Notes under the pieces: generated by a model
Told to the model about the DNA's origin: nothing
The model's database searches: none
Seen by the model: the letters and a program-made list of their open reading frames with translations, nothing else
In this document: positions 2,669 through 29,600 of the stretch, piece after piece
How positions within the stretch are numbered: position 1 is the first letter of the stretch
Layout: the number at the start of each line of letters is the position of its first letter
Made by a program: the position numbers and the translations under genes
Assembly (NCBI GenBank): GCA_040005675.1
Contig: JBDTYN010000090.1
Coordinates: 1 to 35,241, forward strand
Direction: 5' to 3'
Source: Chthoniobacterales bacterium
GTDB taxonomy: Bacteria > Verrucomicrobiota > Verrucomicrobiia > Chthoniobacterales > UBA10450
Length of the DNA: 35,241 bases

Positions 2669-2708
2669 GGCGGATTCTGACCGCCCGGCGCGCGAGGGTC
2701 GAGAGTTG

Positions 2709-3218: not shown

Positions 3219-3300
3219 TCGGAAAGGCCAAATCAGCCGGCAGCCGGCGGCGCAACTGTGGCAGGTATAATAGCACCGCCTGACCGCCTGCCGACGCAGT

Positions 3301-4311: not shown

Positions 4312-4399
4312 GCGCCCCGAGGATAGCACGGGTCTCTCACGGGCGAAAACGCTTGATTCACCAGCGTGCAGCAAGTATTCGGGGCAGGGCATTTTACTT

Positions 4400-5578: not shown

Positions 5579-5630
5579 GGACAAGAACCCTGCGGTTTTC
5601 GATTCTTAGGCGTGCTGCGCCCTCGCCGCT

Positions 5631-5712
5631 GTCATGTCGAGCGAAGCCGAGACATCCTGCTGCGTTACCTTGAGGTTATATCTAGGGATTCCTCGACCTC
5701 GCTCGGAATGAC
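5631..5712. repeat. Intergenic hairpin repeat, copy 1 (REPIN/MITE-like inverted-arm element)
   Basis: Left arm is gtcatgtcgagcgaagccgagacatcc (5631-5657). Right arm is gggattcctcgacctcgctcggaatgac (5685-5712). The arms are mutual reverse complements and homologous to the copies at 8493-8584 and 26634-26714. It lies between livK and livH. Confidence 0.85.
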
Positions 5713-5746
5713 ACAGATGCAGCGCTTACCCCGCGATAGCTAACGC

Positions 5747-7713: not shown

Positions 7714-8473
7714 GCTGCGCGACTGCACAATGCAGTTCGGCGGCCTGACCGCGCTCTCGAACTTGTCGCTCCAGATCGGTCCTCACGACCTCGTCGGGCT
7801 GATTGGTCCCAATGGCGCCGGGAAAACAACCGTCTTCAACATCATCACCGGAATCTACGAACCAACATCCGGCGCGATCGATCTTGGCGGCCAATCCATC
7901 ATCGGCCGAAAAGCGTCTGCGATCGCGGCGCGGGGCATTGCGCGCACGTTTCAAAACATCCGGCTTTTCGCTTCACTCTCGGTCTACGATAACGTCCGTG
8001 CGGCTTTCACGATGCGGCTGAAGCACGGCATCGCACACGCTCTCTGGCGCGGCCGGCCATTTCAGAAAGAAGAGGCGGAGATCAGTGACCAGGTCGTGGA
8101 GATTCTGCGCATTTTCCATCTGGAGGACTCTCGAGAGACCCCCTGCAAAAGTCTTTCCTATGGCGATCAGCGACGACTCGAAATCGTGCGGGCTCTCGCG
8201 ACCCGTCCCCAGCTGCTCCTCCTCGACGAGCCGGCGGCCGGCATGAACCCGCGCGAAAAAGAACAATTGATGGAGTTGATCCAATTCGTGAAGGAGAAAT
8301 TTCAGATCGCGGTCCTGCTGGTCGAACATGACATGAAGGTGGTGATGGGAATCTGCGCACGCGTCGCCGTGCTCGATTACGGGATCAAGATCGCGGAAGG
8401 AACTCCGGCGGAGGTGCAGAGGAACCCGAAGGTGATCGAAGCCTACTTGGGCCAGGAAGCTGTGACGCAATGA
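7697..8473 (+). CDS. livG: Branched-chain amino acid ABC transporter ATP-binding protein LivG
   Basis: Walker A is GPNGAGKTT, the signature is LSYGDQRRLEI, and Walker B is LLLLDEPAAG. The C-terminal PKVIEAYLG tail is typical of LivG. The gene overlaps livM by 17 nt. Confidence 0.95.
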   Translation: MSSLLELRDCTMQFGGLTALSNLSLQIGPHDLVGLIGPNGAGKTTVFNIITGIYEPTSGAIDLGGQSIIGRKASAIAARGIARTFQNIRLFASLSVYDNVRAAFTMRLKHGIAHALWRGRPFQKEEAEISDQVVEILRIFHLEDSRETPCKSLSYGDQRRLEIVRALATRPQLLLLDEPAAGMNPREKEQLMELIQFVKEKFQIAVLLVEHDMKVVMGICARVAVLDYGIKIAEGTPAEVQRNPKVIEAYLGQEAVTQ

Positions 8474-8492
8474 ACGCGATCGATTACCCGCG

Positions 8493-8584
8493 GTCATCCC
8501 GAGCGCAGCGCAGCGGAGTCGAGAAGCCCCGCAGATCACGCTTCACATACTGCGACGGGATTCCTCGGCTTCGCTCGGAACGAC
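8493..8584. repeat. Intergenic hairpin repeat, copy 2
   Basis: The left arm gtcatcccgagcgcagcgcagcggagtcgagaagcccc carries a small internal gcagc duplication. The right arm gggattcctcggcttcgctcggaacgac (8557-8584) ends 3 nt before the livF ATG. The 30-nt right-arm block tgcgacgggattcctcggcttcgctcggaa is identical to copy 3, and after one C/T difference both continue gacat. Confidence 0.85.
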
Positions 8585-8587
8585 ATC

Positions 8588-9298
8588 ATGCTTGAGCTGA
8601 AAGACCTGGCCGTTTCTTACGGCTCCATCACCGCACTGCACGATGTCTCCTTGCGTGTCGGGCAGGGCGATATCGTCACATTGATTGGCGCGAACGGAGC
8701 GGGAAAATCAACGACGTTGCGCGCGATTTCCGGATTGCTTAAGACGCAGAGGGGCAGCATCCGCTACGAAGATCAGGAGATTGCGAACGAAGCGCCCCAT
8801 AAGATTGTCGCGCGCGGGATTTCGCATGTGCCGGAAGGCCGCATGGTCTTCGCGAACCTGACGGTGCACGAGAATCTGCTGATGGGCGCTTACCTGCGCA
8901 AGGATCGGTCAAAACTCGCTGCAGATTTCGATTTTATCTTCGAAATCTTTCCGCGCCTCAAGGAACGGTCGCGGCAGGTGGCGGGCACTTTATCGGGTGG
9001 CGAACAGCAGATGCTGGCCATCGGGCGCGCTTTGATGAGCAAACCGCGTTGCCTGATGCTGGACGAGCCGTCGCTCGGGATCGCGCCGATCCTGGTGAAG
9101 ACGATTTTTCAAAAAATCGTGGAGATCAACAGGTCGTTAGGCATCACAATTTTGCTCGTGGAACAGAATGCCAATCTTGCGCTCGAAGTCTCGAACTATG
9201 GGTACGTTCTCGAAACCGGTCACATTATCTTGCACGATCAATCGCTCGCTTTGCGCGCCAACGAACGGGTGAAAAGCGCGTATCTCGGCGGAAACTAA
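8588..9298 (+). CDS. livF: Branched-chain amino acid ABC transporter ATP-binding protein LivF
   Basis: Walker A is GANGAGKST, the signature is LSGGEQQMLAIGRAL, and Walker B is LMLDEPSLG. The length of about 236 aa and the position after livG fit LivF. Confidence 0.95.
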   Translation: MLELKDLAVSYGSITALHDVSLRVGQGDIVTLIGANGAGKSTTLRAISGLLKTQRGSIRYEDQEIANEAPHKIVARGISHVPEGRMVFANLTVHENLLMGAYLRKDRSKLAADFDFIFEIFPRLKERSRQVAGTLSGGEQQMLAIGRALMSKPRCLMLDEPSLGIAPILVKTIFQKIVEINRSLGITILLVEQNANLALEVSNYGYVLETGHIILHDQSLALRANERVKSAYLGGN

Positions 9299-10080
9299 GC
9301 GCTGCGGCTACTGCCACTGAAATTCTCGCCGGAGCTGCCATCTCCGAACTGGAGTAATTGCCGAAGCTTTTCCTGCGGCCAAGTCCCGTTCTCGCTTTCT
9401 GCTGCGGTTTCCGGCGATGGGGAGCCCTGTTCGGATTTGGCGTGAAACAGCCCGAGCACCTCCGCCTCTTCCATCGTTAGTGTCCGCACGGGAGACGTGA
9501 CCGTCTTTCTCTGTACCCGCCCGATCAGGTCTGAAAGCGAGGCGCTATCGAAATTTGCAGCGCGAAAGAAATCGATCATGCGTTGGAAGCGCAAATGAAA
9601 CGGGATCAACGCGATTTCGAACGGGCCCTCTTCGGAGAGTTGATCGGGAGGGGTGGCAATCGCGGCCGAGCGCGCGACTGCGTTCCACGTTCCAGTGGGG
9701 TCGTTGTAGCCGAGTTCGACTGTATAATGCTGTCCGCCATTTGGAACGGGCAGATAGGATTCGCCCGCGAATGGCTCGACTACGACGCCGCTTTGTTCCG
9801 CGCCGCCTTCGTCGAAGATGCGCAGATGCGCCTTCTGGTCGGGCGGTGGAGCATCGCCGAATACGGAGCGCCAATCGATATCCCAAAATGCAAAGAGGGT
9901 CTTCGCATCGCGCGCCACCACAAAGAGCACCGACTCGCCGTAGGAGCGAGGAAGGTGGCCGAGATTGTCGATGTTCGCCGATCCCCCTGAGATCGAGCCG
10001 GCTTGTTGTTCACCCTGTTCCGGAATGAGCGGAGTGTTCGAAACCGCGAAAGTTCGTCCGGGCGTCAGTGGTTCGCTCAT
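9295..10080 (-). CDS. DUF4912 domain-containing protein
   Basis: LGHLPRSYGESVLFVVARDAKTLFAFWDIDW matches the DUF4912 N-terminal signature (LP.sYG...l.rDP..lfayWd) as I recall it. Start set at ATG 10080 (MSEPLTPG...), because the longer ORF would run across the divergent kinase gene. The stop overlaps the livF stop. Confidence 0.65.
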   Translation of the reverse strand: MSEPLTPGRTFAVSNTPLIPEQGEQQAGSISGGSANIDNLGHLPRSYGESVLFVVARDAKTLFAFWDIDWRSVFGDAPPPDQKAHLRIFDEGGAEQSGVVVEPFAGESYLPVPNGGQHYTVELGYNDPTGTWNAVARSAAIATPPDQLSEEGPFEIALIPFHLRFQRMIDFFRAANFDSASLSDLIGRVQRKTVTSPVRTLTMEEAEVLGLFHAKSEQGSPSPETAAESENGTWPQEKLRQLLQFGDGSSGENFSGSSRSA

Positions 10081-10254
10081 ACTGCAAACGTCAGCGGCGA
10101 CGTTACACAACCAGCGGCCTAACGCGACCGGAAACGTGGCACCGCGAGGGCCGGTAAACGAAAGAAATTGTTGTGACCGCGCGGCCAACCCGCGCCTCGC
10201 TTTCGCGGACGAATTTGCCTCTGCGCGCGCAACGGCGAAGCTCATGACGCTTCT

Positions 10255-11151
10255 GTGAAACGTTGTCTTATCGCAAATCCCATTGCCGGATCCGCCACGG
10301 CGCCCGACGATCTGCGCGAAAAATTTCAGCGCCTCGAGCCAGTGGACATCCGTGTCACGCATGCGCCGGGCGAGGCGGAGAAATTTGCGCGCGAGGCGGT
10401 CGCCGATGGTTGCGACATGCTCGTGGTGGCCGGAGGTGATGGCACCTTGAACGAGGTCGTGAACGGTATCGCTCCTCACGCGGCCGAGGTACTACTGGCA
10501 CTCGCACCGAGCGGCACCGGCAATGATTTTGCCCGTGCGCTCAATCTCCCTGACGCTCTTGACGACTGTCTCGATCTTATTCTGTCAGAAAAGATTCGCG
10601 CGGTGGATCTAGTCCGCGTGCAGAGCGATCGCCTCCGCTATTTTGTTAATGTTTCGGCCGGGGGTTTTAGCGGTCTCGTGAATGAAAAATTAACCGCGGA
10701 AATGAAGCAGACGTGGGGGCCACTTGCGTATCTGCGGTGTGCCGCCGCAGCGCTGCCCGAATTGCGCGCCTATCGAACCGAAATCACACTCGACAATGCC
10801 ACTCCCATCGCGGCTAACCTATACAACGTCGTTGTTGCCAATGGTCGCTACGTTGCGGGCGGAATCCCAATCGCGCCGGATGCGGAGCCCGACGACGGAC
10901 TCCTCGATGTCGTGTTAATTCCGGAGAATTCGGGGAGCGATCTCGCCCTGCTTGCGGCGCAGGTTGTGATTGGCACACATCTCACCAGCGCGGCGATTAT
11001 CTTTCGCCGCGCTGCCAGGGTAACGGTGCAGTCTACTCCTGGAATGTGGTTCAATGTCGATGGAGAAATCGTCGGCAACGAGCCGGCGGTGTTTGAGATA
11101 GTCCCCCGCGCGATTCAATTCGTCGCGCCTGCGAAATCAGACAAATCGTGA
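10255..11151 (+). CDS. Diacylglycerol kinase-family lipid kinase (YegS/BmrU type), paralog 1
   Basis: GTG start. The DAGK catalytic-domain motifs VVAGGDGTLNEVVNG and PSGTGNDFARAL are present, along with a C-terminal accessory domain (NVDGEIVG). Confidence 0.85.
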   Translation: MKRCLIANPIAGSATAPDDLREKFQRLEPVDIRVTHAPGEAEKFAREAVADGCDMLVVAGGDGTLNEVVNGIAPHAAEVLLALAPSGTGNDFARALNLPDALDDCLDLILSEKIRAVDLVRVQSDRLRYFVNVSAGGFSGLVNEKLTAEMKQTWGPLAYLRCAAAALPELRAYRTEITLDNATPIAANLYNVVVANGRYVAGGIPIAPDAEPDDGLLDVVLIPENSGSDLALLAAQVVIGTHLTSAAIIFRRAARVTVQSTPGMWFNVDGEIVGNEPAVFEIVPRAIQFVAPAKSDKS

Positions 11152-11624
11152 GCGACAAGATCCAGACTGTCGAGGCGCTCGCGGAAACCGCGGTGAGATT
11201 GCGCAGGGAGGGGCGAAAACTGGTCGCCACCAATGGCTGCTTCGATCTGCTGCACGTGGGTCACGTGCGTTACCTGCGGGCCGCGCGCGATCTCGGCGAT
11301 TGCCTTGCCGTGGGCCTGAATGGAGATAAATCGGTACGACAGCTGAAAGGCGCAGGGCGCCCGCTCAATCGCGCGGACGATCGGGCTGAGGTTCTGGCCG
11401 CACTCGAAGCCGTTGATTACGTCGCTGTTTTTCCAGAGCTCCGCGCATCCCAGTTCCTCCGCACGGTGCGGCCGGCAATCTATGTGAAGGGCGGTGATTA
11501 CACGCCTGAAACGCTTGATAGGGACGAGAAAGAAGCGCTTGCCGCGATCGGCGCAGAAATTGTCATCATCCCTTTCGCGCACGGCTACTCGACTTCCGGC
11601 CTCATCGACTCAGCGAGAAGCTAG
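11148..11624 (+). CDS. hldC: D-glycero-beta-D-manno-heptose 1-phosphate adenylyltransferase (stand-alone RfaE domain II)
   Basis: The GTG start overlaps the kinase stop (GTGA). TNGCFDLLHVGHVRYLRAARDLGDCLAVGLNGDKSVRQLKGAGRPLN...VLAALEAVDYV...VKGGDY is the cytidylyltransferase-fold RfaE-II/HldC signature. Confidence 0.85.
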   Translation: MSDKIQTVEALAETAVRLRREGRKLVATNGCFDLLHVGHVRYLRAARDLGDCLAVGLNGDKSVRQLKGAGRPLNRADDRAEVLAALEAVDYVAVFPELRASQFLRTVRPAIYVKGGDYTPETLDRDEKEALAAIGAEIVIIPFAHGYSTSGLIDSARS

Positions 11625-16562: not shown

Positions 16563-18383
16563 TCAGACGCTGCGCGCAAATGCGGCCAGCTCAACCGTTG
16601 TTTCGTATTGGAGAAACGGAGTGATCAGATAGACGCCGGGAAAATGAGCGAGCGCCTCCTCTACGATCCGCCTTGCGAGTTTAGCACCGCAGGCGCGTCC
16701 CTCCGCGCCGTCCCGGCCAGCCATCTCTGCGCGCACAGCCTCTGGCACGACAATGCCTGGAACCTCATTGTGCAAAAACTCTGCCTGGCGACCGCTCAGC
16801 AGTGGCCAGATTCCAGTGAAGATCGGAATACCGAGATAAGCTGTCCGACGGTGCATCTCCTCGATCAGTCGGATTTCAAAGACGGGCTGCGTCATGGCGA
16901 ACTGCGCACCAGCGGCGACCTTCCGTTCTAACCGGTTCAGCTGTGAATCAAGATTTCTCGCATTCGGATTAAACGTGCAGCCGGTCACAAATGCCGTCGC
17001 GTGCTTGATTGATTTTCCGGCGTGGGTGAAACCTTCGTTGAGGCGCTTGATAATTCCGATGAGTTCCACCGAGTTCACATCATAAACCGAGGCGGCGCCC
17101 GGATGATCGCCGACCCGTGCCGGATCGCCGGTCAAGGGGAGGACGTGCCGCATTCCGAGCGCGGCCATCCCGAGTAACTCGCTCTGCAGACCGAGCACGT
17201 TGCGGTCGCGGCAACTGAGATGCAGCAAAGGCGTGATGCCAAACCGCTCCTTCAACATCGCGCCGACAGCTAAGTTGCTGACGCGCAAAATCGCGAGCGA
17301 GTTATCCGCCAGCGTAATTGCATCGCAGCCTGCGGAGATCAGAGCACGGGCGCCGTCGAAATATTTTTCCAGTGCGAGCGTTTTCGGCGGATCCAGTTCG
17401 CAGATAACCACGCGTTTGCCCGCAGCGACGCGATCGAGAAGGCTCTCCTCCTCGATCGCCGCCGTTTTTAGCGCGGCCGCTGGCGCCGGCTCGACCATAC
17501 GAACTTGTTTGCTTCGAACTGGCTGAAGCCCACCTATGGCCGCCGCGATCGCCGCGATGTGTTTCGGGTTGGTTCCGCAACATCCGCCAATCAAACGGGC
17601 GCCCTGAGCCACCATCTCGCGGGCAGATTTGGCAAAATACTCAGGAGCAGTATGATAAATAAAACGGCCCTCGTGATATTTCGGATAGCCGGCGTTGGGA
17701 TACGCCGCGAGCAGGTGTTCGGCTGGGATGCGCTCAAGCAACTGCACCATGCCATGCGGCCCGTTCATGCAATTCGCCCCGACGATTTGTGCTCCCAACT
17801 CGCGAGCCCGCGCGAATGCGTCCACCAGCGGCATCCCGCAAGCAAGGCGTCCTTCTGGTGCGCAAGCGAACGAAGAGACGGTCAGCGCGTTCGTCACCTC
17901 CCTTTTCACTTGCAGCGCAATCGCCATCTCGTCGAAGTCCATGAAAGTCTCTAAGAAAAGGAGATCGACGCCGCCGTCGAGTAGCCCTGCGATTTGCTCC
18001 CGAAAGCAGGCGGCTCGGTCGATTCCTCGCGCTGCGGCGTCGTCCGCGGTGATTCCGAGCGGCCCAATGCTTCCCCCTATGCATACGTCCGCGCCCTTGG
18101 CCGCTTTTCGCGCGAGCTGCGCGGATGCAAAGTTGATTTCCGCAACGCGCTGTTCAAACCCAAAGCGCTCGAGACGCACGGCATTTGCCCCAAACGTGTT
18201 TGTCTCAATGACGCGCGCGCCCGCGCCGATATATTCCTCGTGAATTTTCTGGATCTGATCCGGTTCGCTGACGCTTAACTCCTCAAAGCACCGTTCGAGA
18301 GGAACCCCGCGGTCGAGCAATAACGTACCCATGGCTCCATCGCCGCAAACCAATCGCGTCTCTAATTCCTCCAGCAGGTCCAT
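16563..18383 (-). CDS. Bifunctional homocysteine S-methyltransferase / 5,10-methylenetetrahydrofolate reductase (YitJ-type)
   Basis: The N-terminal Hcy-binding domain is GDGAMGTLL...GANCMNGP...GGCCGT. The C-terminal MTHFR domain is VICELDPPK...ITLADN...HLSCRD...LPLTGDP. Total length is 606 aa. Confidence 0.88.
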   Translation of the reverse strand: MDLLEELETRLVCGDGAMGTLLLDRGVPLERCFEELSVSEPDQIQKIHEEYIGAGARVIETNTFGANAVRLERFGFEQRVAEINFASAQLARKAAKGADVCIGGSIGPLGITADDAAARGIDRAACFREQIAGLLDGGVDLLFLETFMDFDEMAIALQVKREVTNALTVSSFACAPEGRLACGMPLVDAFARARELGAQIVGANCMNGPHGMVQLLERIPAEHLLAAYPNAGYPKYHEGRFIYHTAPEYFAKSAREMVAQGARLIGGCCGTNPKHIAAIAAAIGGLQPVRSKQVRMVEPAPAAALKTAAIEEESLLDRVAAGKRVVICELDPPKTLALEKYFDGARALISAGCDAITLADNSLAILRVSNLAVGAMLKERFGITPLLHLSCRDRNVLGLQSELLGMAALGMRHVLPLTGDPARVGDHPGAASVYDVNSVELIGIIKRLNEGFTHAGKSIKHATAFVTGCTFNPNARNLDSQLNRLERKVAAGAQFAMTQPVFEIRLIEEMHRRTAYLGIPIFTGIWPLLSGRQAEFLHNEVPGIVVPEAVRAEMAGRDGAEGRACGAKLARRIVEEALAHFPGVYLITPFLQYETTVELAAFARSV

Positions 18384-19290: not shown

Positions 19291-19665
19291 TCTTCGTTGT
19301 TAACTGATTGCTCAGTACGAAGCCAACAAGTTCGAATAATGGGGCACGAATTTCCGTCTGCACCAGCCCCTGCTCCGCTGCCTGGTCGAAACGGTGTTGT
19401 TATCGACAGGTTTCGCGTTGCCCCTTTTACGAATGAAGACTCTGCCGAAGAACCGAGTTATTCAATCCCTTAAGGTTAAGGATTGCTTATCGCTTAGATA
19501 AAGATTCAAAGAAACACTGTGAACATCTCTGCTTCCCAACGCATAAATTCGCCTGGACCGCAGGGAACGGAGAGGAATGACACGCTGCTAAAACCGCTTC
19601 CCCAATCGGCGACGCTCTTCACGAGGACGCGCACAACCGAAGCTCCCCCTCCCGCGCGCGGGGAG

Positions 19666-20310
19666 ATGGGGGACAGCCTGTTCGAGCGGTTTGCCTGGCT
19701 CTATATTTTCTGCCGCGAAAAGCTTTTCCGCGATGACACCGACCGCATGATCAGCGCTTTGTGGCAGAACGGGGCACCCCCGAAAAATACAGAACTGATC
19801 GAGCTCGGTTGCGGACCGGGTTTTTATTCCTGCGAGTTCGCGCGGCGCTTCCCCACCATCAAAGTCGTTGGCATCGATCAATCGGATCAACAGCTGAGTT
19901 GCGCGCGCCGGCGAGCACAAACGCTCGGCTTGGTGAACTGCCAATTCGAGAAGATGAATATTCTCGAACAATCCCGTCCGGATGAACGCGTCGATATTGT
20001 AATAGCTTCTCGCCTTTTTACCGTCTTGTTGGACCGGAACCGAGCACTCTCGGAGATATACAGGGTTCTTCGCCGGGGCGGGCGGTGTCTCATTGCCGAA
20101 CCGCGGCATGCCTTCCGGGCTTCAATTCCTCTCCTCGCGATGTGGTTTCTGGCTGGAATGACGCGGTGCAAACACGGATATCGTGAACCAAGAAAAGCGA
20201 GCGTTCTCGTCCAGGACGAATTTGCAGCGTTGTTCACCAGGGACCCGTGGAGAACGTGCCGAGTCTGGCTTGACGGCCGGTATCAGTACGCTCTTTGCGA
20301 GAAGGGTTGA
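19666..20310 (+). CDS. Class I SAM-dependent methyltransferase
   Basis: ELGCGPGFYSCEFARRFPTIKVVGIDQS is SAM-binding motif I, followed by DIVIASRLF and LRRGGRCLI. I chose ATG 19666 (MGDSLFERFAWLY...). The upstream GTG 19519 would add 49 low-complexity residues and remains possible. Confidence 0.75.
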   Translation: MGDSLFERFAWLYIFCREKLFRDDTDRMISALWQNGAPPKNTELIELGCGPGFYSCEFARRFPTIKVVGIDQSDQQLSCARRRAQTLGLVNCQFEKMNILEQSRPDERVDIVIASRLFTVLLDRNRALSEIYRVLRRGGRCLIAEPRHAFRASIPLLAMWFLAGMTRCKHGYREPRKASVLVQDEFAALFTRDPWRTCRVWLDGRYQYALCEKG

Positions 20311-20344
20311 GGAACGCGGCGTTCAAATTCACACCGCACGGCGC

Positions 20345-21124
20345 ATGAAGTCCGTTCATCGGGTGCTTGACCCGCAAGCGCCGCCGCCGATTCCGCGCGG
20401 GCTATGCGCGCTCGCCGTGATGACGAAAGCGCCCCGCGCGGGCAAGGTGAAAACGAGGTTGTCTCCGCCACTTACTCCGCAGGAAGCGGCGGCGTTAAAT
20501 ATCTGCTTTTTGCGCGACACCAGCGCTGCGATCTCTGCCGCAGCCACCGCCGGTGGGGCCAGAGGCATCGGCGTTTACACTCCCGTCGGCGAGGAAGCTG
20601 CCTATAGCGGAATATTGCCACCCGATTTCGACCTTATTCTGCAACGCGGGGAAGCGTTCGGTGAACGATTGATATCCGCAACCGAGGATTTATTGCAGGT
20701 GGGCTTCCACTCTGTTTGCCTGATCGATTCCGATAGCCCCACCGTTCCGCAGCACGCGTACGCCGCAGCGGTGACATTCCTGGCGGAAGGAGATGAGCGG
20801 GTCGTGCTCGGCCCGTCAAACGACGGCGGGTATTATCTCATCGGCATGAGCCGGCTGAACCGAAAACTCTTTGAAAATATCGAATGGAGCACCGAACGCG
20901 TCGCCGAACAGACACTGGCTCAGGCCAAGCAACTCGGGCTGGAAGTGAAGTTGTTGCCCACTTGGTATGACGTCGATGATCGCACGACCTTGCGCCGGCT
21001 TTGCGCCGAGCTGGTCGGATCAACGGCGCCGCCCTCGCGTGGATTTGAAGCCACCCACACACGCGCTTTTCTAACCGACGTGATCACGCGGGAAGGACGC
21101 GAGAGGATTTGGCCTAACGAATAG
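20345..21124 (+). CDS. DUF2064 (CofC-like nucleotidyltransferase-fold) protein, TIGR04282-type transferase candidate
   Basis: I used the internal ATG 20345, since the longer ORF overlaps the methyltransferase. LAVMTKAPRAGKVKTRLSPPLTPQEAAAL is the hallmark DUF2064 N-terminus. LIDSDSP and GPSNDGGYYLIGM are also present. Confidence 0.8.
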   Translation: MKSVHRVLDPQAPPPIPRGLCALAVMTKAPRAGKVKTRLSPPLTPQEAAALNICFLRDTSAAISAAATAGGARGIGVYTPVGEEAAYSGILPPDFDLILQRGEAFGERLISATEDLLQVGFHSVCLIDSDSPTVPQHAYAAAVTFLAEGDERVVLGPSNDGGYYLIGMSRLNRKLFENIEWSTERVAEQTLAQAKQLGLEVKLLPTWYDVDDRTTLRRLCAELVGSTAPPSRGFEATHTRAFLTDVITREGRERIWPNE

Positions 21125-21132
21125 CGCACACC

Positions 21133-22278
21133 ATGAACATGAATTTCAACTTCAAGCACGGTAAACGCGCACTTGTCACCGGCGCGGCCGGGTTAATCGG
21201 CTCGCACCTCGCGGATCTGCTCGCTGGGCAAGGTTGGACGGTGCGGATTCTCGATAACCTCGAGCCGCAAACGCATCGCAACGGAAGGCCGCCCTGGATT
21301 AACGACGCCGCTGAATTCGTGGAAGGCGATTTGCGCGATCGTGCAGTGATGACAGCCGCCCTCGCCGATATCGACGTGGTCTTTCACCAGGCCGCCTATG
21401 GCGGCTACATGCCGGAGATCGCGAAATACGTGCACGTTAACTCGTTTGGCACGGCGCAACTGCTCGAGATCATTCGCGAACAGCATCTTCCGATCAAAAA
21501 AATAGTCGTTGCCTCGTCGCAGGCGGTTTATAGCGAAGGTGCGGCCGAATGTCCCGAGCACGATCTCGTATTTCCGCCCGTCCGCCCCGTCGAACAATTG
21601 CGGCGCGGTGATTGGAACGTTCATTGCCCGATTTGCGGCAAGGTGACGAAAACCGTTCCGACTCCGGAGAACGCGCCGGTCGGCGGAGAAACAGTTTACG
21701 GACTGACGAAAGTCGACCAGGAAAAACTGGTGCTTCTTTGGGGCAAGCAGATCGGCATTCCCACCGTTGCGCTGCGTTACTCCTGCACCTATGGACCTCG
21801 CCAGTCGATCTTCAATCCCTACACCGGTGTGATTGCGATTTTCTGCACTCGTTTGCTGAACGATTTACCGCCGGTGCTTTACGAAGATGGCGAGCAAACG
21901 CGCGATTTTTCCTTCGTCGAAGATATCGCACGCGCCAACTTGCTCGCCGCCGAATCCGACGCGCTCGATGGGCTTCCGGTGAACGTCGGAAGCGAACGTG
22001 GCGTGCCCATCCGCGAGGTCGCCGACCAAATATCGGATGCGCTCAACATTCGCATCGCGCCTGAGATCAATGGCGACTTCCGCCCCGGCGAGATGCGCCA
22101 CCTCACAAGTGGCACCGCACGCATCCGAGCTGCGGGATACGAGCCGAAGGTTGATCTGGCGACGGGCATCGGGCGATATCTCGATTGGATCCGCGCACAA
22201 GCTGACGTGCGCGATTACTTCAGCGAAGCGGCCGATATTTTGCGCAGCAAAGGCATCGTCCACCGCGTGACGAAATAG
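21133..22278 (+). CDS. NAD-dependent epimerase/dehydratase (extended SDR) with a Cys/His-rich insertion
   Basis: Contains ALVTGAAGLIGSHL (GxxGxxG), ASSQAVY and YGLTK (the YxxxK catalytic motif). A roughly 30-aa insert, CPEH...HCPICGK, lies between the Ser and Tyr motifs. Confidence 0.85.
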   Translation: MNMNFNFKHGKRALVTGAAGLIGSHLADLLAGQGWTVRILDNLEPQTHRNGRPPWINDAAEFVEGDLRDRAVMTAALADIDVVFHQAAYGGYMPEIAKYVHVNSFGTAQLLEIIREQHLPIKKIVVASSQAVYSEGAAECPEHDLVFPPVRPVEQLRRGDWNVHCPICGKVTKTVPTPENAPVGGETVYGLTKVDQEKLVLLWGKQIGIPTVALRYSCTYGPRQSIFNPYTGVIAIFCTRLLNDLPPVLYEDGEQTRDFSFVEDIARANLLAAESDALDGLPVNVGSERGVPIREVADQISDALNIRIAPEINGDFRPGEMRHLTSGTARIRAAGYEPKVDLATGIGRYLDWIRAQADVRDYFSEAADILRSKGIVHRVTK

Positions 22279-22335
22279 CCGCCGCGTCGCGCTTGCAACT
22301 TCGCCAGTCACAAGCGAGACGCTTGGGCTACGCCG

Positions 22336-23025
22336 ATGTACTCCGTTTCCGTCATTATTCCCGCGCTCGATGAGGAGGAGCCGATCGCGGATGTCGTCCG
22401 CGGATGTCTTGCCACGGGGTTACCGGCAGAGGTGATCGTGGTCGACAATGGCAGCACGGATCGCACAGCGGAACGCGCCCGCGAAGCCGGGGCGCGCGTT
22501 GTGCCAGCGCCCCGCGGTTACGGCCGCGCCTGCGCTGCGGGTATCGCCAGTTTGTCGCCGGAATGCGAGGTTGTCGTCTTTCTCGACGGGGATGGGAGTG
22601 ATTGCCCCGAGCTGATGGATCAACTTATTCGCCCACTCAAGGATGGGATCTACGATTTCGTGATCGGCTCACGCACCCGAGGCGTGCGCGAGCCGGGCAG
22701 CATGAACGCGCAGCAAGTCTTTGCCGGTCACCTCGCCGGCTGGCTCATGCGGCCGCTCTACGGCGTGAAATATACGGATATGTGTCCGTTCCGTGCCATC
22801 CGGCGGTCCGCCCTCGACCAGCTTGGGATGAAGGAGCAGACTTACGGGTGGAATCTCGAGATGCAGATGCGCGCGGCACGTGCCGGTCTCCGCATTCTCG
22901 AAGTCCCGGTAAGCCATCGGTGTCGCACCGGCGGTGAATCAAAAGTCTCCGGCACATTGCGCGGGACATTCGTGGCCGGAACGCGGATTTTCGCGACACT
23001 CCTGCGTGTTGCAGCCGAAGGCTGA
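22336..23025 (+). CDS. Glycosyltransferase family 2 (soluble, MftF/DPM-synthase-like)
   Basis: Motifs seen: VSVIIPALDEEEPI, VIVVDNGSTDRTAE, GYGRACAAG, and the DxD-like FLDGDGSD. The protein is about 229 aa with no TM helices. Confidence 0.85.
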   Translation: MYSVSVIIPALDEEEPIADVVRGCLATGLPAEVIVVDNGSTDRTAERAREAGARVVPAPRGYGRACAAGIASLSPECEVVVFLDGDGSDCPELMDQLIRPLKDGIYDFVIGSRTRGVREPGSMNAQQVFAGHLAGWLMRPLYGVKYTDMCPFRAIRRSALDQLGMKEQTYGWNLEMQMRAARAGLRILEVPVSHRCRTGGESKVSGTLRGTFVAGTRIFATLLRVAAEG

Positions 23026-23207
23026 TGGCCGTTCGCGCAATGCCGACGACTTAGCTTGACGCCCAGCGGCATTTGTTTCATCGATGGCGAGACTTGCGGG
23101 GGAAACGATCTGCGGCGTCTCACAGTGTCGCAAGGGCAGTCAGTGCGGCGACTTCGTAAAGCAGGTTCGGGCAGTTCGTCATAAGCCTTCGATTACCTGA
23201 GCAACAG

Positions 23208-24800
23208 ATGAACGAGCGCGGCCAGATTCGAACAATAATTACGCCTTCGAGTCGCTTGAAGTTCGCCTCCGCTGGTCTGATCGCGGGGACGCTGGCCGGC
23301 CTGGCCATGACGGTAGTCATGTTGCTTCTCGCATGGTTGTTCGGCGTCGCGACGCCTCTCGCGATTTTCGGCGACCGTCTCTCAATCTTTATCCCAGCGG
23401 ACACTTTCCTGGCCTTGATGGGAGGAGTCGGGGGCTACAACCACATGAAGCAACTTGGCATCGGCTCGGTGATTATCGACCAGGTGTTCATCGGGGCGTT
23501 GGGAGGAATGATTTACGGGCTGCTTTGTCGCACGCGATCGCACTTTAGTACCGCGACCACGGCCGCGATCTTCGTGGCGCTTCCGCTCACCGCGACGGCT
23601 ATCGTGCTCTGGCCAGTGCTTGGGACGAGTTACCTCGGAGTTCCGATCGATGCGGCCAAGCTCATTACGCTCGTGGGTCTCACCCTCGCATTCGTGGTTT
23701 TTGAGCGAATGCTTGTCCTCGGCTTTGCCTGGACCACGCAAAAAGGGACTGGGCCCGACGAGCCTGAATTCACGCCTCACATCGCGCGCCGGGCGCTAAT
23801 CTTTGGAGGCTTTGGCCTTCTCGTCACAGGAGGGACTGGAGCTGCCCTCCTCCGCAAACTCTATGACGTCGCCACCTTCAGTTATGACGGCACACAGTAC
23901 AAAGGTCGCCTCGTGCAGCCGATCACGCCCAACGACCAGTTTTATTGTGTGACAAAGAACGTGGTTGATCCGCGCGTCGACGTTTCCCTCTGGCACCTTG
24001 AGGTTTCGGGCCTGGTTCAAAATCAGCGCACCTACCGGCTACGCGATCTGCAGGGCATGCCGCCGGTTGATCAGGAAACAACATTGATGTGCATCAGCAA
24101 CGGGCTGGATGCCGGATTAATGAGCAATGCGATGTGGCGCGGCGTCTCCATGGTAACGTTGCTCGAAGTGGCCGCTCCGCTCCCCGGAGCGAAGAAAGTG
24201 CGGCTGCACGGACTGGACAATTACACCGACACTTTCCCATTTGAAAAAGCGATGGATCCGACAACGCTGATCGCCTACGAAATGAACGGGGAGCCGCTGT
24301 CTGACAGGCACGGCTATCCCGCGCGCGCCATCGTTCCAGGTTATTTCGGCGAGAAACACGTGAAGTGGATTACCCGCATTGAAGTGATCGATGGAAGCGC
24401 GCAAGGCTTCTACGAAAAGCAAGGGTGGGGTCCGGACTTCGTCGTGCCGACCCGCTCGCGTTTCGATCAACCGGAGAACGAAGCACGTGTGGCGCTCGCG
24501 ACGGCTGCAGGCGGTATCGCTGTGAAGGGGGTCGCATTCGGTGGCGATCGCGGGATCTCAAGAGTGGAAGTCAGTTCCGACGAGGGCGAGAGCTGGGACG
24601 AAGCAACCTTGGACTATCCGGGAACTCGTCTCACCTGGGCGCTCTGGAGCTTCGCCTGGCGGCCCGATCAAACCGATGACTACACACTCGTTGTGCGCGC
24701 TACGGACGGAGAAGGCGCGGTGCAGGAACTGGAGGAAGATCGGCCGTTCAAGTCGGGCACGACCGGGTTTCACAGGATTGTCGTGCACGTGACTGCGTAA
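23208..24800 (+). CDS. Membrane-anchored molybdopterin-dependent oxidoreductase (sulfite oxidase family)
   Basis: The first ~215 aa or so are polytopic and hydrophobic, with an internal RR motif (HIARRALIFGGFGLL). An SO-family catalytic domain follows (ITPNDQFYCVTKN, TLMCISNG with the Mo-ligand Cys, HGYPARAIVPGYFGEKHVKWI), then a dimerisation/Ig-like domain. Confidence 0.85.
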   Translation: MNERGQIRTIITPSSRLKFASAGLIAGTLAGLAMTVVMLLLAWLFGVATPLAIFGDRLSIFIPADTFLALMGGVGGYNHMKQLGIGSVIIDQVFIGALGGMIYGLLCRTRSHFSTATTAAIFVALPLTATAIVLWPVLGTSYLGVPIDAAKLITLVGLTLAFVVFERMLVLGFAWTTQKGTGPDEPEFTPHIARRALIFGGFGLLVTGGTGAALLRKLYDVATFSYDGTQYKGRLVQPITPNDQFYCVTKNVVDPRVDVSLWHLEVSGLVQNQRTYRLRDLQGMPPVDQETTLMCISNGLDAGLMSNAMWRGVSMVTLLEVAAPLPGAKKVRLHGLDNYTDTFPFEKAMDPTTLIAYEMNGEPLSDRHGYPARAIVPGYFGEKHVKWITRIEVIDGSAQGFYEKQGWGPDFVVPTRSRFDQPENEARVALATAAGGIAVKGVAFGGDRGISRVEVSSDEGESWDEATLDYPGTRLTWALWSFAWRPDQTDDYTLVVRATDGEGAVQELEEDRPFKSGTTGFHRIVVHVTA

Positions 24801-28670: not shown

Positions 28671-29600
28671 GTGCGGGCCGCCTTCTATCGTCCTCCCACG
28701 GTTCTATCCCGGCCGCGGCGAGAGCGCTCTGAAAACGTGAATGATACCGTCGTAATTTTGAATCCTGCTGCGCGAAGCGAGCGGGCTGACCGACAGCGCG
28801 CGCAAATCGAGAATCTCGCGCATAGCGCGGTACTTTGCGCCACGTCACATCGGGGCGAAGCGGAGAAACTCGCCCGGAAGGCGACTGAGGACGGTTACAG
28901 ACGCATCATCGCGGCCGGTGGAGATGGGACGATCAACGAAGTGGTAAACGGCATCGCCGGCGCCGACGTCACCCTGGGGCTGCTTCCGCTCGGGACGATG
29001 AACGTGTTCGCTTCCGAGCTAGGGCTGCCGACCAACGATCTCGGACGTTGCTGGGACATCATTCAGACTGGCAGGACACGGTTGATGGATTTGCCGAGCG
29101 CCAACGGCAAGCATTTCATTCAGCTGGCCGGGGTGGGCCTCGACGCGCAGGTCGTGAAAGAAACGAGCCGGAACTTCAAACGAAGCTTTGGTCCGCTCAG
29201 CTACGTGATATCGGCGGCGCAGATCGCGGCGCGCACCCCGCCGCGGCTCCGGATCGAATCCGAGAACGCGGTCACGGAAGAAGGATCGTTCGTGCTAGTC
29301 GGCAATGGACGGCTCTACGGAGGCCCTTTCCCGTTCTTTAAAAAGGCGCTGCTTGATGACGGCTTGCTCGATGTCCTCGTCTTCAAGCGACTGAACTATC
29401 TCGAAATGATCCGTTATCTGCAGGACGTGATTTTCAGCTCCGAAATCACCTCTCCGGAAGTGGAATACTTCCAGACCAAGGCGCTGCGCGTCAGCAGTGA
29501 GGCGGAGGTGCCAGTGGAAGTAGATGGCGAGCTGATGGGGACGTGCCCGATCGAATTCAGTGTGCGCGGTCGCGCTCTCCGCGTCTTATCGCCGGACTGA
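28671..29600 (+). CDS. Diacylglycerol kinase-family lipid kinase (YegS/BmrU type), paralog 2
   Basis: GTG 28671 sits 8 nt downstream of AGGAGG (28657-28662). Motifs seen: IIAAGGDGTINEVVNG, LPLGTMNVFASELG, EVDGELMG. GTG 28737 is an alternative start. Confidence 0.85.
   Translation: MRAAFYRPPTVLSRPRRERSENVNDTVVILNPAARSERADRQRAQIENLAHSAVLCATSHRGEAEKLARKATEDGYRRIIAAGGDGTINEVVNGIAGADVTLGLLPLGTMNVFASELGLPTNDLGRCWDIIQTGRTRLMDLPSANGKHFIQLAGVGLDAQVVKETSRNFKRSFGPLSYVISAAQIAARTPPRLRIESENAVTEEGSFVLVGNGRLYGGPFPFFKKALLDDGLLDVLVFKRLNYLEMIRYLQDVIFSSEITSPEVEYFQTKALRVSSEAEVPVEVDGELMGTCPIEFSVRGRALRVLSPD

Follow-up and report, generated by a model that had tools for sequence, protein, structure and literature searches.

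A conserved operon of a soil Verrucomicrobium that may build a lipid-linked sugar for envelope glycosylation

We analyzed a 35,241-nt stretch of DNA (the window) from a soil Verrucomicrobium, in which genes for a SAM methyltransferase, a DUF2064 protein, an extended SDR, and a GT2 glycosyltransferase lie next to one another (Table 1). The original prediction had described four co-oriented genes here, and their coordinates hold, all on the + strand and with gaps of exactly 34, 8, and 57 nt. The cluster probably extends beyond those four to a fifth gene, encoding a molybdenum (Mo) oxidoreductase. Housekeeping genes adjoin the cassette (Pfam scans), and we saw no promoter or terminator pattern at it that would delimit an operon. 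Pfam scans of the larger ORFs and phmmer searches with partner queries (all window ORFs of at least 70 aa, E ≤ 0.01) found no radical SAM, phosphoesterase, nucleoside phosphorylase, or GT-C gene in the window; the ArsS-type radical SAM and phosphoesterase partners had rightly been called absent.

Table 1. Genes and features of the cassette in the window
Feature	Position	Strand	Details
SAM methyltransferase ORF	19519..20310	+	GTG start at 19519
DUF2064 gene	20345..21124	+	ATG, nested in longer ORF 20183-21124; 259 aa
Extended SDR gene	21133..22278	+	381 aa
Cys/His insertion of SDR	21550..21636	+	C140-P-x-H143 ... C165-P-x-C168; putative Zn knuckle or lid
GT2 gene	22336..23025	+	229 aa, no TM helix
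Sulfite-oxidase-family molybdoenzyme gene	23208..24800	+	530 aa; probable fifth cassette gene

The first gene encodes a class I SAM methyltransferase (PF13847, 82 bits; PF13649, 72 bits) that reaches no NCBIfam equivalog cutoff (ArsM-like, 57 vs. 510; BioC, 54 vs. 185). The first ~49-50 residues of its ORF are unconserved, and conservation among 10 orthologs starts at DSLFERFAWLY; the true start is probably the ATG at 19666, giving a protein of 214 aa.

The DUF2064 protein matches PF09837 at 90.5 bits and TIGR04282 at 168.8 bits (cutoff 134), as its earlier assignment to the CofC-like TIGR04282 family had anticipated, and the hallmark motif cited for it lies within the stretch ...VMTKAPRAGKVKTRLSPPL.... 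PDB entry 3CGX matches at 1.6e-16, and the family profile reaches FbiD (6BWG, 3.4e-7) and a 3-phosphoglycerate guanylyltransferase (7P97, 1e-5); the 7P97 alignment spans the full length and brings the KTRL, D-x-P, and D-V-D motifs into register. After 3CGX the profile finds only FbiD and CofC, followed by KdsB at E ~0.3. Near-invariant residues are K28, G33, K36-T37-R38-L39, D58, D130, D160-G161-G162-Y163, and D209-V210-D211. Since the CofC/FbiD guanylyltransferases of F420 biosynthesis are the nearest characterized relatives, aligning at the K-x-x-K-[ST]-R-L loop, D-x-P, and the C-terminal D-x-D, the protein is probably a CofC/FbiD-like nucleotidyltransferase. Unlike CofC and FbiD, it scores 26.6 on TIGR03552 against a cutoff of 105; it also differs from F420 biosynthesis in its glycosylation context and in a window without CofD, CofE, or FO synthase genes. 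We found no experimental studies on this DUF2064 clade in the literature. At two Verrucomicrobial loci (L007 and L015) DUF2064 is kept alone, so it can work without the other cassette genes nearby.

The third protein is an extended SDR epimerase/dehydratase (PF01370, 148 bits) whose closest matches in the PDB are 4-epimerases of UDP-GlcNAc, UDP-GlcA, and UDP-Glc (6DNT, 6WJB, 4ZRM, 6ZL6, and MoeE5). It carries the motifs TGAAGLIGS, SSQAVY, and Y189-x3-K193; no T-D-E dehydratase motif was seen, and in NCBIfam it falls below every equivalog cutoff. JGI pipelines annotate it as "dTDP-L-rhamnose 4-epimerase". The insertion separates the catalytic Ser strand from the YxxxK helix and has no counterpart in PDB epimerases (query residues 138-175 are unmatched in 6WJB). 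Its C, H, C, and C occur without exception in the 16 orthologs from Verrucomicrobiota, Acidobacteriota, and locus L019, and likewise in 26 database homologs. The enzyme resembles a GalE-type NDP-sugar epimerase with an extra segment, which may bind zinc as a knuckle or act as a lid. The AlphaFold model is of low confidence (pLDDT 55). Identity to the Acidobacterial ortholog is 76%, compared with 56% for DUF2064.

The GT2 (PF00535, 74.7 bits) had been taken for an MftF-like member of TIGR04283; this is ruled out, the HMM giving 48.7 vs. 182 bits over the N-terminal 93 positions only. The AglJ model (TIGR04182) scores 119.5 bits over the whole domain, dolichyl-P hexose transferase 63.9, and PpgS 57.3; no DPMS, AglJ, or PpgS equivalog cutoff is reached. 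The protein aligns to residues 2-212 of Pyrococcus furiosus DPMS (PfDPMS), with E12 conserved as E13, the DAD motif as D84-G-D86, R117 as R113, and the A-loop residues R202/E206/K208 as R197/E201/K203. The aligned region is that kept in the PfDPMS delta230-352 variant, which remains membrane-targeted and fully active. With PfDPMS, human DPM1, and mycobacterial Ppm1 the GT2 has in common a catalytic core, a DXD motif, the R-x-x-x-E-S-K A-loop, and two amphipathic helices, and a TM-less DPMS form is active. The AF2 model (pLDDT 80) puts helices 125-142 and 208-227 at the positions of the DPMS interface helices, and no TM segment is predicted. We infer that the protein, which looks like a TM-less DPM1/AglJ-type enzyme, is a polyprenyl-phosphate sugar synthase; its donor sugar, unlike that of DPMS, is probably not mannose. 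Two observations count against such a lipid-linked reading. The Dol-P phosphate ligands of PfDPMS (R131, S135, and K178) are unconserved in the pairwise alignment, and a fold search puts the soluble glucosyl-3-phosphoglycerate synthase (GpgS; TM-scores 0.73-0.77) as high as ArnC, GtrB, and DPMS (0.66-0.74). By sequence, GpgS matches only the nucleotide-binding N-terminal half (residues 3-143).

The molybdoenzyme (PF00174, 146.8 bits; PF03404, 45 bits) reaches none of the SorA, SoxC, or MsrP equivalog cutoffs. SorA (2CA3) matches it at 8.5e-31 with the Mo-ligand Cys aligned and a gap at the SorA "SR" after C-S-G-N. TM segments are predicted at 36-54, 84-102, 120-138, 143-161, and 197-215; about five to six TM helices precede the Mo domain and a dimerization domain. 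The gene is present at nine Verrucomicrobial loci, mostly 21-182 nt after GT2 (over 1 kb in L006), and in L019 it lies 5′ of DUF2064 instead. In Alphaproteobacteria, 15 out of 31 loci have an MsrP-like relative next to DUF2064, either with cytochrome b or without it; such relatives also flank it in Kitasatospora and Streptomyces.

That the genes form a functional unit, as originally proposed, is upheld by their synteny in related Chthoniobacterales contigs. Of 14 Verrucomicrobial loci, 9-12 keep the gene order. One of them is L003, where the same methyltransferase-DUF2064-SDR-GT2 order stands beside an unrelated upstream flank and an only partly shared downstream one. Methyltransferase orthologs lie immediately 5′ of DUF2064 at 9 of the 14 and at two Acidobacteriaceae loci, and the cassette genes travel together in Acidobacteriota (L012 and L069) and in L019. 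The cluster had been called an orphan; its family spans Verrucomicrobiota, Acidobacteriota, Alpha-, Gamma-, and Deltaproteobacteria, Actinomycetota, Chloroflexota, and Methylomirabilota. It is a real, widely conserved operon.

Across ~90 loci in many phyla, this DUF2064 clade is accompanied by GT2 and a GT87-like GT-C, with MsrP-like Mo enzymes often among the companions. A partner slot in these loci holds an SDR only (15), a radical SAM enzyme only (34), or both (none), so the cluster is, as predicted, a variant of better-known DUF2064 neighborhoods in which the SDR takes the place of a radical SAM/SPASM enzyme. The latter belongs to no named family; it matches "tungsten cofactor oxidoreductase maturase" and MoaA-like models best, yet stays far under the thresholds set for them (best match 143 vs. 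a cutoff of 380). The GT-C lies between or beside DUF2064 and GT2 in 40 out of 83 loci. On two Methylobacterium plasmids, where PGAP calls it "glycosyltransferase 87 family protein", 4-nt gene overlaps indicate one translationally coupled operon. Single-ORF fusions join GT87 to GT2 (Blastocatellia, L069) and GT87 to radical SAM (L021), and a single protein combines DUF2064 with GT87 (P0244). Because these companions include a GT87-like GT-C, sometimes fused to GT2, a lipid-linked sugar for envelope glycosylation is favored over the soluble methylated small molecule first proposed. Against it counts that no GT-C, flippase, or nucleoside phosphorylase occurs within ~8 kb in the 14 Verrucomicrobial loci.

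Dolichyl- and polyprenyl-phosphate mannose synthases provide the donor for GT-C enzymes, PimE of GT87 among them, and the pairing of GT2 with a GT87-like GT-C in cassette relatives resembles this arrangement. A close parallel in logic is the pathway by which Mycobacterium tuberculosis caps lipoarabinomannan (LAM) with methylthio-D-xylose (MTX): MtxS (Rv0539) produces a lipid-linked MTX donor and MtxT (Rv0541c) puts the sugar on LAM. The likeness lies in a small GT2 that loads a rare pentose onto polyprenyl phosphate and a GT-C that moves it to an envelope glycan. The five genes of the MTX pathway are reportedly pnp, galE3 (an SDR), Rv0539, Rv0540, and Rv0541c, and MTA is said to pass via the MTAP Rv0535 to MTR-1-P, then to a nucleotide sugar, C-3 epimerization, and decaprenyl-P-MTX. 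Three actinomycete clusters resembling it contain an SDR, a DPM-like GT2, DUF2064, and a class I methyltransferase, with a GT87-like protein in two and a Mo oxidoreductase in two; that of Kitasatospora includes a bona fide MTAP (445 bits vs. a cutoff of 306). These clusters and the window have the DUF2064, SDR, and GT2 families in common, at only 30-40% protein identity. The window differs from the MTX pathway in having no MTAP or GT-C, in adding a methyltransferase and a TM-anchored Mo enzyme, and in the conserved Cys/His insertion of its SDR. The actinomycete DUF2064 proteins (30% identity, 46-66 bits) are more distant than ArsS-linked ones (35-39%), so orthology with an MTX-type enzyme is tentative at most. 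A further point against a lipid-linked, MTX-type reading is that the methyltransferase and its actinomycete counterpart are not orthologs; the latter lies immediately 3′ of DUF2064 in Kitasatospora and Nonomuraea and has a Streptomyces homolog ~1.5 kb off on the opposite strand.

Three-component systems of periplasmic glycosylation, made up of a polyprenyl-P-sugar synthase, a flippase, and a GT-C (for example GtrA/B/V, ArnC/ArnT, and the Citrobacter youngae PPPRS/MATE/GT136 system), likewise build a lipid-linked monosaccharide in the cytoplasm for external transfer by a GT-C. Structures of ArnC and GtrB are among the matches of the GT2 model, and the C. youngae system has an auxiliary SDR epimerase; a GalE-like SDR epimerase sets pentofuranose identity in a polyprenyl-P-pentofuranose/GT-C system (PMC11127046). 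The window differs in a synthase without TM helices, in lacking flippase and GT-C genes, and in adding a CofC-like nucleotidyltransferase, a methyltransferase, and a Mo enzyme. With the TIGR04282/TIGR04283/ArsS (TIGR04167) set it shares the pairing of DUF2064 with a small GT-A-fold transferase, but it has no ArsS and its GT2 fails TIGR04283; the genuine TIGR04283 and ArsS partners adjoin a separate, more distant DUF2064 clade (L079 and L070). NCBI names for this set are "rSAM/selenodomain-associated transferases 1 and 2" or "arsenosugar biosynthesis". On Burkholderia glumae plasmids, the classic TIGR04282/TIGR04283 pair stands in an operon with MTAP and without ArsS.

In a soluble small-molecule pathway, DUF2064 would activate a phospho-acid or sugar phosphate, the GT2 would act like GpgS on a soluble phosphorylated acceptor, and the SDR and methyltransferase would carry out the tailoring to a methylated glycoside such as a compatible solute or cofactor-like molecule. 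The nearest characterized DUF2064 relatives do use 2-phospholactate, PEP, or 3-phosphoglycerate, and a fold search with the GT2 model ranks GpgS structures first (TM-scores up to 0.77); the missing TM helix, a window without GT-C or flippase, and the unconserved S135 and R131 ligands point the same way. We nevertheless consider both the soluble acceptor and the tailored glycoside unlikely: The GpgS sequence match ends at residue 143, whereas DPMS and AglJ cover the full domain including the A-loop; a DPMS core without TM helices is fully active on Dol-P; and the orthologous GT2 adjoins, and is once fused to, a GT-C membrane glycosyltransferase, a class that takes lipid-phosphate-linked donors.

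The remaining alternatives are far less probable than a soluble product. Arsenosugar or organoarsenical biosynthesis with an ArsM-like methyltransferase, suggested by the NCBI name of TIGR04282, would fit the DUF2064 score above that cutoff, the ArsM-type models that are the methyltransferase's best NCBIfam matches, and Chloroflexus, where a more distant DUF2064 adjoins ArsS (409 bits); a Mo oxygen-atom-transfer enzyme might in principle handle As=O groups. The idea is very doubtful, given that ArsS is found neither in the window nor at any locus of its DUF2064 clade, the methyltransferase scores 57 against an ArsM cutoff of 510, the GT2 is below the TIGR04283 cutoff, the clade's radical SAM partners are SPASM enzymes without a named family, and the "arsenosugar" name is based on gene neighborhood only; our literature search turned up no experiments on TIGR04282 or TIGR04283. 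Marginally less credible still is molybdoenzyme maturation or cofactor modification, with DUF2064 acting MobA/MocA-like on molybdopterin and the relatives' radical SAM/SPASM enzyme a metalloenzyme maturase. Mo enzymes are the commonest extra neighbor across phyla, the SPASM enzymes match maturase and MoaA-like models best, and DUF2064 shares the MobA/CofC fold class; yet those matches are far under cutoffs, at many loci no Mo enzyme accompanies the cassette, sulfite-oxidase-family enzymes carry plain Mo-molybdopterin, and the GT2, GT87-like GT-C, SDR epimerase, and relatives' nucleoside phosphorylases would be left without a role. Chance proximity of unrelated genes, with which housekeeping neighbors and the lack of an operon-delimiting pattern would agree, is effectively refuted by the order kept in L003 despite its upstream flank, co-occurrence of the same families in at least five phyla, translational coupling in Methylobacterium, and gene fusions.

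With slightly better than even confidence, we favor a variant of the MTX pathway running from sugar-1-phosphate through NDP-sugar and epimerized NDP-sugar to polyprenyl-phosphate sugar and periplasmic glycan decoration. The analysis shows which families the proteins belong to, which catalytic motifs they conserve, and how the genes are kept together or fused; all substrates, the lipid acceptor, and the methyltransferase and Mo enzyme roles are what we infer. DUF2064 would activate an unusual sugar-1-phosphate with NTP, possibly a 5-substituted 5-deoxy-pentose-1-phosphate freed from a nucleoside by a phosphorylase encoded elsewhere. The putative Zn-knuckle SDR would epimerize the NDP-sugar via a keto intermediate, and the GT2 would move the sugar onto polyprenyl phosphate at the membrane surface. 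After a flip, a GT87-like GT-C, in-cluster in other phyla but absent from this window, would attach it to a glycan. The methyltransferase would contribute a methyl group, and the product would be a substrate of the Mo enzyme, whose most plausible reaction is oxygen-atom transfer at a sugar heteroatom.

The original observation of a cluster thus stands, and its interpretation is partly supported: The system is not wholly undescribed, because the MTX pathway with MtxS and MtxT is a partly characterized analog. Most likely, the cassette is neither an arsenic-sugar nor an orphan small-molecule pathway. We think it somewhat probable that 19666-24800 is one cassette, which would make a lipid-linked donor of an unusual sugar for an envelope glycan at the outer face of the cytoplasmic membrane.

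The ORF calls bear out the arrangement read earlier from the sequence alone: four genes on the plus strand, encoding a class I SAM methyltransferase, a DUF2064 protein, an extended SDR, and a GT2, are separated by 34, 8, and 57 nt. The methyltransferase probably begins at the ATG at 19666, because conservation among its orthologues begins only at DSLFERFAWLY. The window is chromosomal DNA with a G+C content of 54-63%, and the nearest relatives of its proteins come from Chthoniobacterales (Verrucomicrobiota) in soil metagenomes. The genes around the cassette are housekeeping genes: upstream are gpsA, plsY, mnmG, a DedA/VTT protein, a homocysteine-methyltransferase/MTHFR fusion, and a cyclase; downstream are Fpg, TrxB, and a GT4. 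Rfam and tRNA scans found no RNA genes in the window, and a promoter/terminator scan of it performed no better than on shuffled sequence.

Positions of the cassette genes and of other features in the window and in compared DUF2064 loci
Locus	Feature	Position	Strand	Assignment
Window	Class I SAM methyltransferase	ORF 19519-20310	+	Pfam, NCBIfam
Window	DUF2064/TIGR04282 protein	20345-21124, within ORF 20183-21124	+	Pfam, NCBIfam
Window	Extended SDR	21133-22278	+	Pfam, NCBIfam
Window	GT2	22336-23025	+	Pfam, NCBIfam
Window	Sulfite-oxidase-family molybdoenzyme (Mo enzyme)	23208-24800		PF00174, PF03404
Window	Homocysteine S-methyltransferase/MTHFR fusion (606 aa)	16563-18383	-	PF02574, PF02219
Window	YegS/DAGK-type lipid kinase	10255-11151		PF00781, PF19279
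Window	YegS/DAGK-type lipid kinase	28671-29600		PF00781, PF19279
L004	CBS-MgtE protein	9917-10933		TIGR00400 (below cutoff)
L007	DUF2064 alone	1555-2334		
L015	DUF2064 alone	7986-8774		
L016	Family f9 membrane protein	5753-6739		
L021	GT87-like + radical SAM/SPASM, single ORF (846 aa)	8638-11178		
L069	GT87-like GT-C + small GT2, single ORF (730 aa)	2055-4247		
L085	Methylobacterium plasmid operon	7002-14044		PGAP
L089	Methylobacterium plasmid operon	5046-12049		PGAP
L090	Burkholderia glumae plasmid p79s4p operon	4290-7733		

The upstream fusion is separated from the cassette by a single cyclase gene, and several Chthoniobacterales loci have a homologue of it beside theirs. The fusion may be tied to SAM or methionine-cycle supply, though plain synteny may explain the proximity. 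The two lipid kinase genes in the window are paralogous.

A genome scan with the DUF2064 profile yielded 80 loci spread over many phyla; ORFs were called in all of them and searched with the window proteins and with neighbor proteins. The cluster, originally predicted to be an orphan, is not one: the same gene set recurs in relatives, and its gene families recur across phyla. The order methyltransferase-DUF2064-SDR-GT2 is kept in close relatives on long contigs (e.g., L001, 674 kb; L003, 1.3 Mb), the latter with an upstream flank unrelated to that of the window. Among 14 Verrucomicrobial loci, the SDR occurs in 12, the GT2 in 10, and the methyltransferase in nine. A long sulfite-oxidase-family Mo enzyme follows the GT2 in nine, mostly 21-182 nt behind it. 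L019, which comes from an unclassified bacterium, has the order long Mo enzyme-DUF2064-GT87-SDR-GT2, so the Mo enzyme has evidently relocated together with the cluster, to the opposite side of it. From both arrangements we conclude that this enzyme probably belongs to the cassette as its fifth gene. Two loci from Chthoniobacterales/Verrucomicrobiae (L007 and L015) carry DUF2064 without methyltransferase, SDR, GT2, or Mo enzyme, at the same chromosomal position between a MetH-like gene and Fpg/TrxB. The Verrucomicrobial loci all lack a GT-C, flippase, or phosphorylase gene in the vicinity of the cassette. A CBS-MgtE gene, which the window, L003, and L014 lack, lies between SDR and GT2 in nine of the 14 loci (L004, L001, L005, L006, L008-L011, and L013). 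Its product is truncated (∼338 aa; TIGR00400, 148.7 vs. 232.75 bits) and might be a candidate transporter or flippase of the pathway, or unrelated.

The DUF2064 protein passes both of the HMM cutoffs for the families to which it had been ascribed (TIGR04282, 168.8 bits vs. 134; PF09837, 90.5 vs. 25.8), its translation contains the expected hallmark TKAPRAGKVKTRL, and it misses the cutoff of the CofC/FbiD model TIGR03552 (26.6 vs. 105). The family is large, with >16,000 cluster representatives at E ≤ 0.001, and we found no experimental work in the literature on DUF2064, "selenodomain-associated transferase," or TIGR04282/TIGR04283. Against the PDB, the family profile matches 3CGX, the structure of an uncharacterised protein, then FbiD (3.4e-7) and the 3-phosphoglycerate guanylyltransferase CofC (1e-5); the match after these is KdsB, at E of about 0.3. 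The homology to CofC and FbiD is remote, yet significant at the profile level. The nearly invariant residues are K28, K36-T37-R38-L39, D130-S-P132, and D209-V-D211. In the alignment with FbiD and CofC, the K..KTRL loop and the D-x-P and D-V-D motifs coincide, and the presumed roles of the loop and acidic residues follow the structures of these two enzymes. Since the profile matches and the aligned motifs agree, the protein seems better described as a nucleotidyltransferase than by the NCBI term "glycosyltransferase."

The SDR has the expected nucleotide-binding and catalytic motifs of its family (GxxGxxG as TGAAGLIGS; S128/S129 in SSQAVY; Y189-x3-K193) and lacks the T-D-E dehydratase motif. 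Its top PDB matches are UDP-sugar 4-epimerases, and it falls below the cutoffs of the named equivalogs GalE (98 vs. 262), LegB (112 vs. 475), and RmlB (84.5 vs. 365). An insertion of ∼36 residues with an invariant C-P-x-H...C-P-x-C pattern is read as a putative Zn knuckle; an AlphaFold2 model built from 26 close homologues (pLDDT 55) is too poor for the geometry of the knuckle. Across phyla the SDR is much better conserved than its neighbors: the window and Acidobacteriota proteins are 76% identical for the SDR, 71% for the GT2, and 56% for DUF2064, and ALRYSCTYGPRQSIFNPYTGVIAIFCTRLL is among the SDR stretches that are invariant. A UDP-sulfoquinovose synthase beside a sulfite-oxidase-like enzyme was considered and dropped in view of the 4-epimerase matches; no SQD1 or Agl3 structure is among the 60 PDB matches listed. 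Nor do the SDR and GT2 form a hopanoid HpnA/HpnB pair (61.5 vs. 368 and 23 vs. 379, respectively).

The assignment of the GT2 to the MftF-like family TIGR04283 failed: the protein scores 48.7 bits against a cutoff of 182, over profile positions 1-93 only, and a true member, that of L079, scores 249. Instead, it matches AglJ, DPMS, PpgS, and ArnC-type enzymes across the whole domain, below the cutoffs of the polyprenyl-phosphate equivalogs (AglJ, 119.5/325; DPhHxTase, 63.9/375; PpgS, 57.3/370; ArnC, 35.6/529). The protein, 229 aa long, corresponds in alignment to residues 2-212 of the Pyrococcus furiosus DPMS, a form of which lacking the transmembrane domain (delta230-352) is membrane targeted and fully active. 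The donor-locking residues are kept (E13, D84-G-D86, R113, and R197/E201/K203, corresponding to PfDPMS E12, D89-A-D91, R117, and R202/E206/K208). In place of the acceptor phosphate ligands R131, S135, and K178 it has A125, F129, and N173, in a pairwise alignment that is uncertain in this loop and helix. An AlphaFold2 model has helices at 125-142 and 208-227, where the DPMS interface helices are expected, and the C-terminal helix is predicted to be moderately amphipathic and basic. Since the Dol-P ligands are not conserved and a fold search did not separate soluble GpgS-type from polyprenyl-phosphate-type enzymes, a lipid acceptor is suggested mainly by the association and fusion of such GT2s with GT-C enzymes.

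The Mo enzyme begins with approximately five to six TM helices, behind which come a Mo domain like that of SorA and a dimerisation domain (PF00174, 146.8; PF03404, 45), and its Mo-ligand Cys aligns with that of SorA. The last TM helix, with the sequence HIARRALIFGG..., looks as if it had once been a TAT signal. The enzyme misses the equivalog cutoffs of the sulfite dehydrogenases SorA (143/600), SoxC (133/420), and SorT (94/570) and of MsrP (47/207), and has a gap opposite the "SR" that follows the Cys motif of SorA. If the Arg of this motif binds sulfite, as we presume, sulfite would be an unlikely substrate. The methyltransferase is by sequence a generic class I SAM type.

Outside Verrucomicrobiota, DUF2064 proteins of the same clade are followed by a ∼480-aa GT87-like GT-C, a radical SAM/SPASM enzyme, and a small GT2 (e.g., L036, L016) that is 60-71% identical to the GT2 of the window. 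GT87-like genes occur in 40 of 83 related loci; the GT87 assignment relies on Pfam scores of 28.7-35.7 bits against a cutoff of 25 and on PGAP naming, and a search of the protein against PDB sequences gave nothing at E ≤ 1. The SDR alone is present in 15 loci, the radical SAM enzyme alone in 34, and both together in none. Hybrids such as L012 (DUF2064-GT87-SDR-GT2) show that the SDR and the radical SAM/SPASM enzyme fill the same slot. Single proteins join the GT87-like GT-C to the small GT2 (L069), to radical SAM/SPASM (L021), and to DUF2064 (protein P0244, 739 aa). GT-C enzymes take lipid-phosphate-linked sugars as donors, and these are the products of small DPM1-, GtrB-, and ArnC-type GT2s. 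Near 13 of the DUF2064-GT87-rSAM-GT2 clusters is a membrane protein of ∼215-330 aa with six predicted TM helices and no Pfam or NCBIfam match (f9; L016 and 12 other loci), a candidate flippase.

In Alphaproteobacteria, a DeoD-like phosphorylase gene is often upstream of DUF2064, and 15 of 31 loci have, beside DUF2064, an MsrP-like Mo enzyme that carries a TAT signal and usually comes with a cytochrome b. The long N-terminal extension of one of these Mo enzymes (L036) was discarded as an ORF-calling artefact, the protein starting at the TAT-type signal. On plasmids of two cultured Methylobacterium strains (L085 and L089), the genes form one translationally coupled operon with 4-nt overlaps, annotated by PGAP as cytochrome b-molybdopterin oxidoreductase-hypothetical-DUF2064-GT87-radical SAM-GT2-PLP aminotransferase. 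The M. radiotolerans operon has an additional patatin-like phospholipase gene.

The four enzyme types of the window also recur in Actinomycetes. A Kitasatospora cluster encodes an SDR, a DPM-like GT2, DUF2064, a class I methyltransferase, cytochrome b, two Mo oxidoreductases, a GT87-like protein, and a bona fide methylthioadenosine phosphorylase (MTAP; 445 bits vs. 306); Nonomuraea has GT2-SDR on one strand and GT87-DUF2064-methyltransferase on the other; and Streptomyces has an SDR-DUF2064 pair with a methyltransferase and a Mo enzyme nearby and a DPM-like GT2 match just upstream, within the same called ORF. These proteins are only 30-40% identical to those of the window, and the methyltransferases are not orthologous, having the SAM motif alone in common.

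One known system that bears on the function of the cassette is implied by the automatic label "arsenosugar biosynthesis glycosyltransferase," which appears to be wrong for a large DUF2064 clade. In a neighbor-joining tree, the window protein falls inside a clade of GT87/rSAM/GT2-linked clusters; outside it are the DUF2064 proteins of L070, which adjoins ArsS (409 bits), and of L079, which adjoins the true TIGR04283 GT2. ArsS (TIGR04167) was found only beside the distant L070 protein, and neither in the 35-kb window nor in the loci of the clade to which its DUF2064 belongs. Radical SAM and phosphoesterase partners are altogether missing from the window, as predicted, and nucleoside phosphorylase and GT-C genes were likewise not found anywhere in it. 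The cassette thus differs from the "arsenosugar" system in ArsS, in the TIGR04283 partner, and in ArsM, the best ArsM-type models giving its methyltransferase 52-57 bits against cutoffs of 263-510. Published soil metagenomics already takes the TIGR04282 name as an arsenic or stress marker, a reading that appears unfounded for the clade described here, and a published genome comparison took TIGR04282 as "fbiD." Even the classic TIGR04283/TIGR04282 pair can stand beside an MTAP: on a Burkholderia glumae plasmid (L090), the pair stands in the order hypothetical-S-methyl-5′-thioadenosine phosphorylase-TIGR04283 GT2-TIGR04282-FAD-dependent oxidoreductase, a stretch matched by 48 Burkholderia plasmid records, with no ArsS in the 12.6 kb examined around it. 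This suggests that an MTAP-type phosphorylase feeds the pair and, together with the alphaproteobacterial DeoD-like gene, that DUF2064 enzymes act on pentose-1-phosphates from nucleoside phosphorolysis.

The nearest specific analogue is the methylthio-D-xylose (MTX) pathway of Mycobacterium tuberculosis, in which MtxS (Rv0539) makes a lipid-linked methylthio-xylose donor and MtxT (Rv0541c) moves the sugar onto LAM caps. The route is said to begin with methylthioadenosine via the MTAP Rv0535 and to include a nucleotide sugar and then a C-3 epimerisation; the cluster reportedly also holds galE3 and Rv0540, which we believe to be a DUF2064 protein. The window differs in lacking an MtxT-like GT-C and an MTAP. 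The latter, present in the Kitasatospora cluster, is also missing from the Verrucomicrobial loci and could be encoded elsewhere in the genome. A published three-component glycosylation logic includes an auxiliary GalE-like SDR that decides pentofuranose (PMC11127046). We place the cassette as a new variant of polyprenyl-phosphate-sugar/MTX-type envelope glycosylation systems. The system, originally predicted to be undescribed, is thus not wholly so.

We lean, by a small measure, toward a general scheme in which DUF2064 would turn an unusual sugar-1-phosphate into an NDP-sugar, the SDR would epimerise it, and the GT2 would pass it to polyprenyl phosphate; the lipid-linked sugar would be flipped across the membrane and handed by a GT-C to an envelope glycan, with the methyltransferase and the Mo enzyme tailoring or maintaining the sugar. 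The families, their motifs, the synteny, and the fusions are observed, and all substrates are inferred. A more specific reading is, in our estimation, rather doubtful: the DUF2064 family would be nucleotidyltransferases for 5-substituted 5-deoxy-ribose-1-phosphates, released by MTAP- or DeoD-type phosphorylases from 5′-substituted adenosines (MTA, the ArsS product, possibly others). The product of the cassette would then be a thioether pentose similar to methylthio-xylose, linked to a lipid and bearing an extra methyl group, for display on the Verrucomicrobial envelope, and the Mo enzyme would reduce the sulfoxide of this sugar. The thioether pentose and the reduction of its sulfoxide are proposed because of the MsrP-like partner enzymes, the MTAP links, and published proposals that MTX has antioxidant properties and serves methionine sulfoxide reductase A (MsrA) as a substrate. 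Consistent with it, DUF2064 adjoins ArsS, MTAP (in Kitasatospora and B. glumae), and a DeoD-like phosphorylase (in Alphaproteobacteria), and its association with a Mo enzyme is seen in four lineages, the partner being MsrP-like in Alphaproteobacteria and Actinomycetes.

The role proposed here would give DUF2064/TIGR04282 a testable biochemical function, and culturable carriers with plasmid-borne operons (Methylobacterium aquaticum and M. radiotolerans) open the hypothesis to direct testing. It also suggests possible new enzyme roles, for a Zn-knuckle SDR interchangeable with a radical SAM/SPASM enzyme and for sulfite-oxidase/MsrP-type Mo enzymes dedicated to a glycan. A pathway so far confined to the M. 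tuberculosis envelope would reach Verrucomicrobiota, Acidobacteriota, and Alphaproteobacteria, all abundant in soil. If the thioether pentose is real, the glycan would act as a sacrificial antioxidant, repaired by a dedicated enzyme, and would be widespread among soil bacteria.
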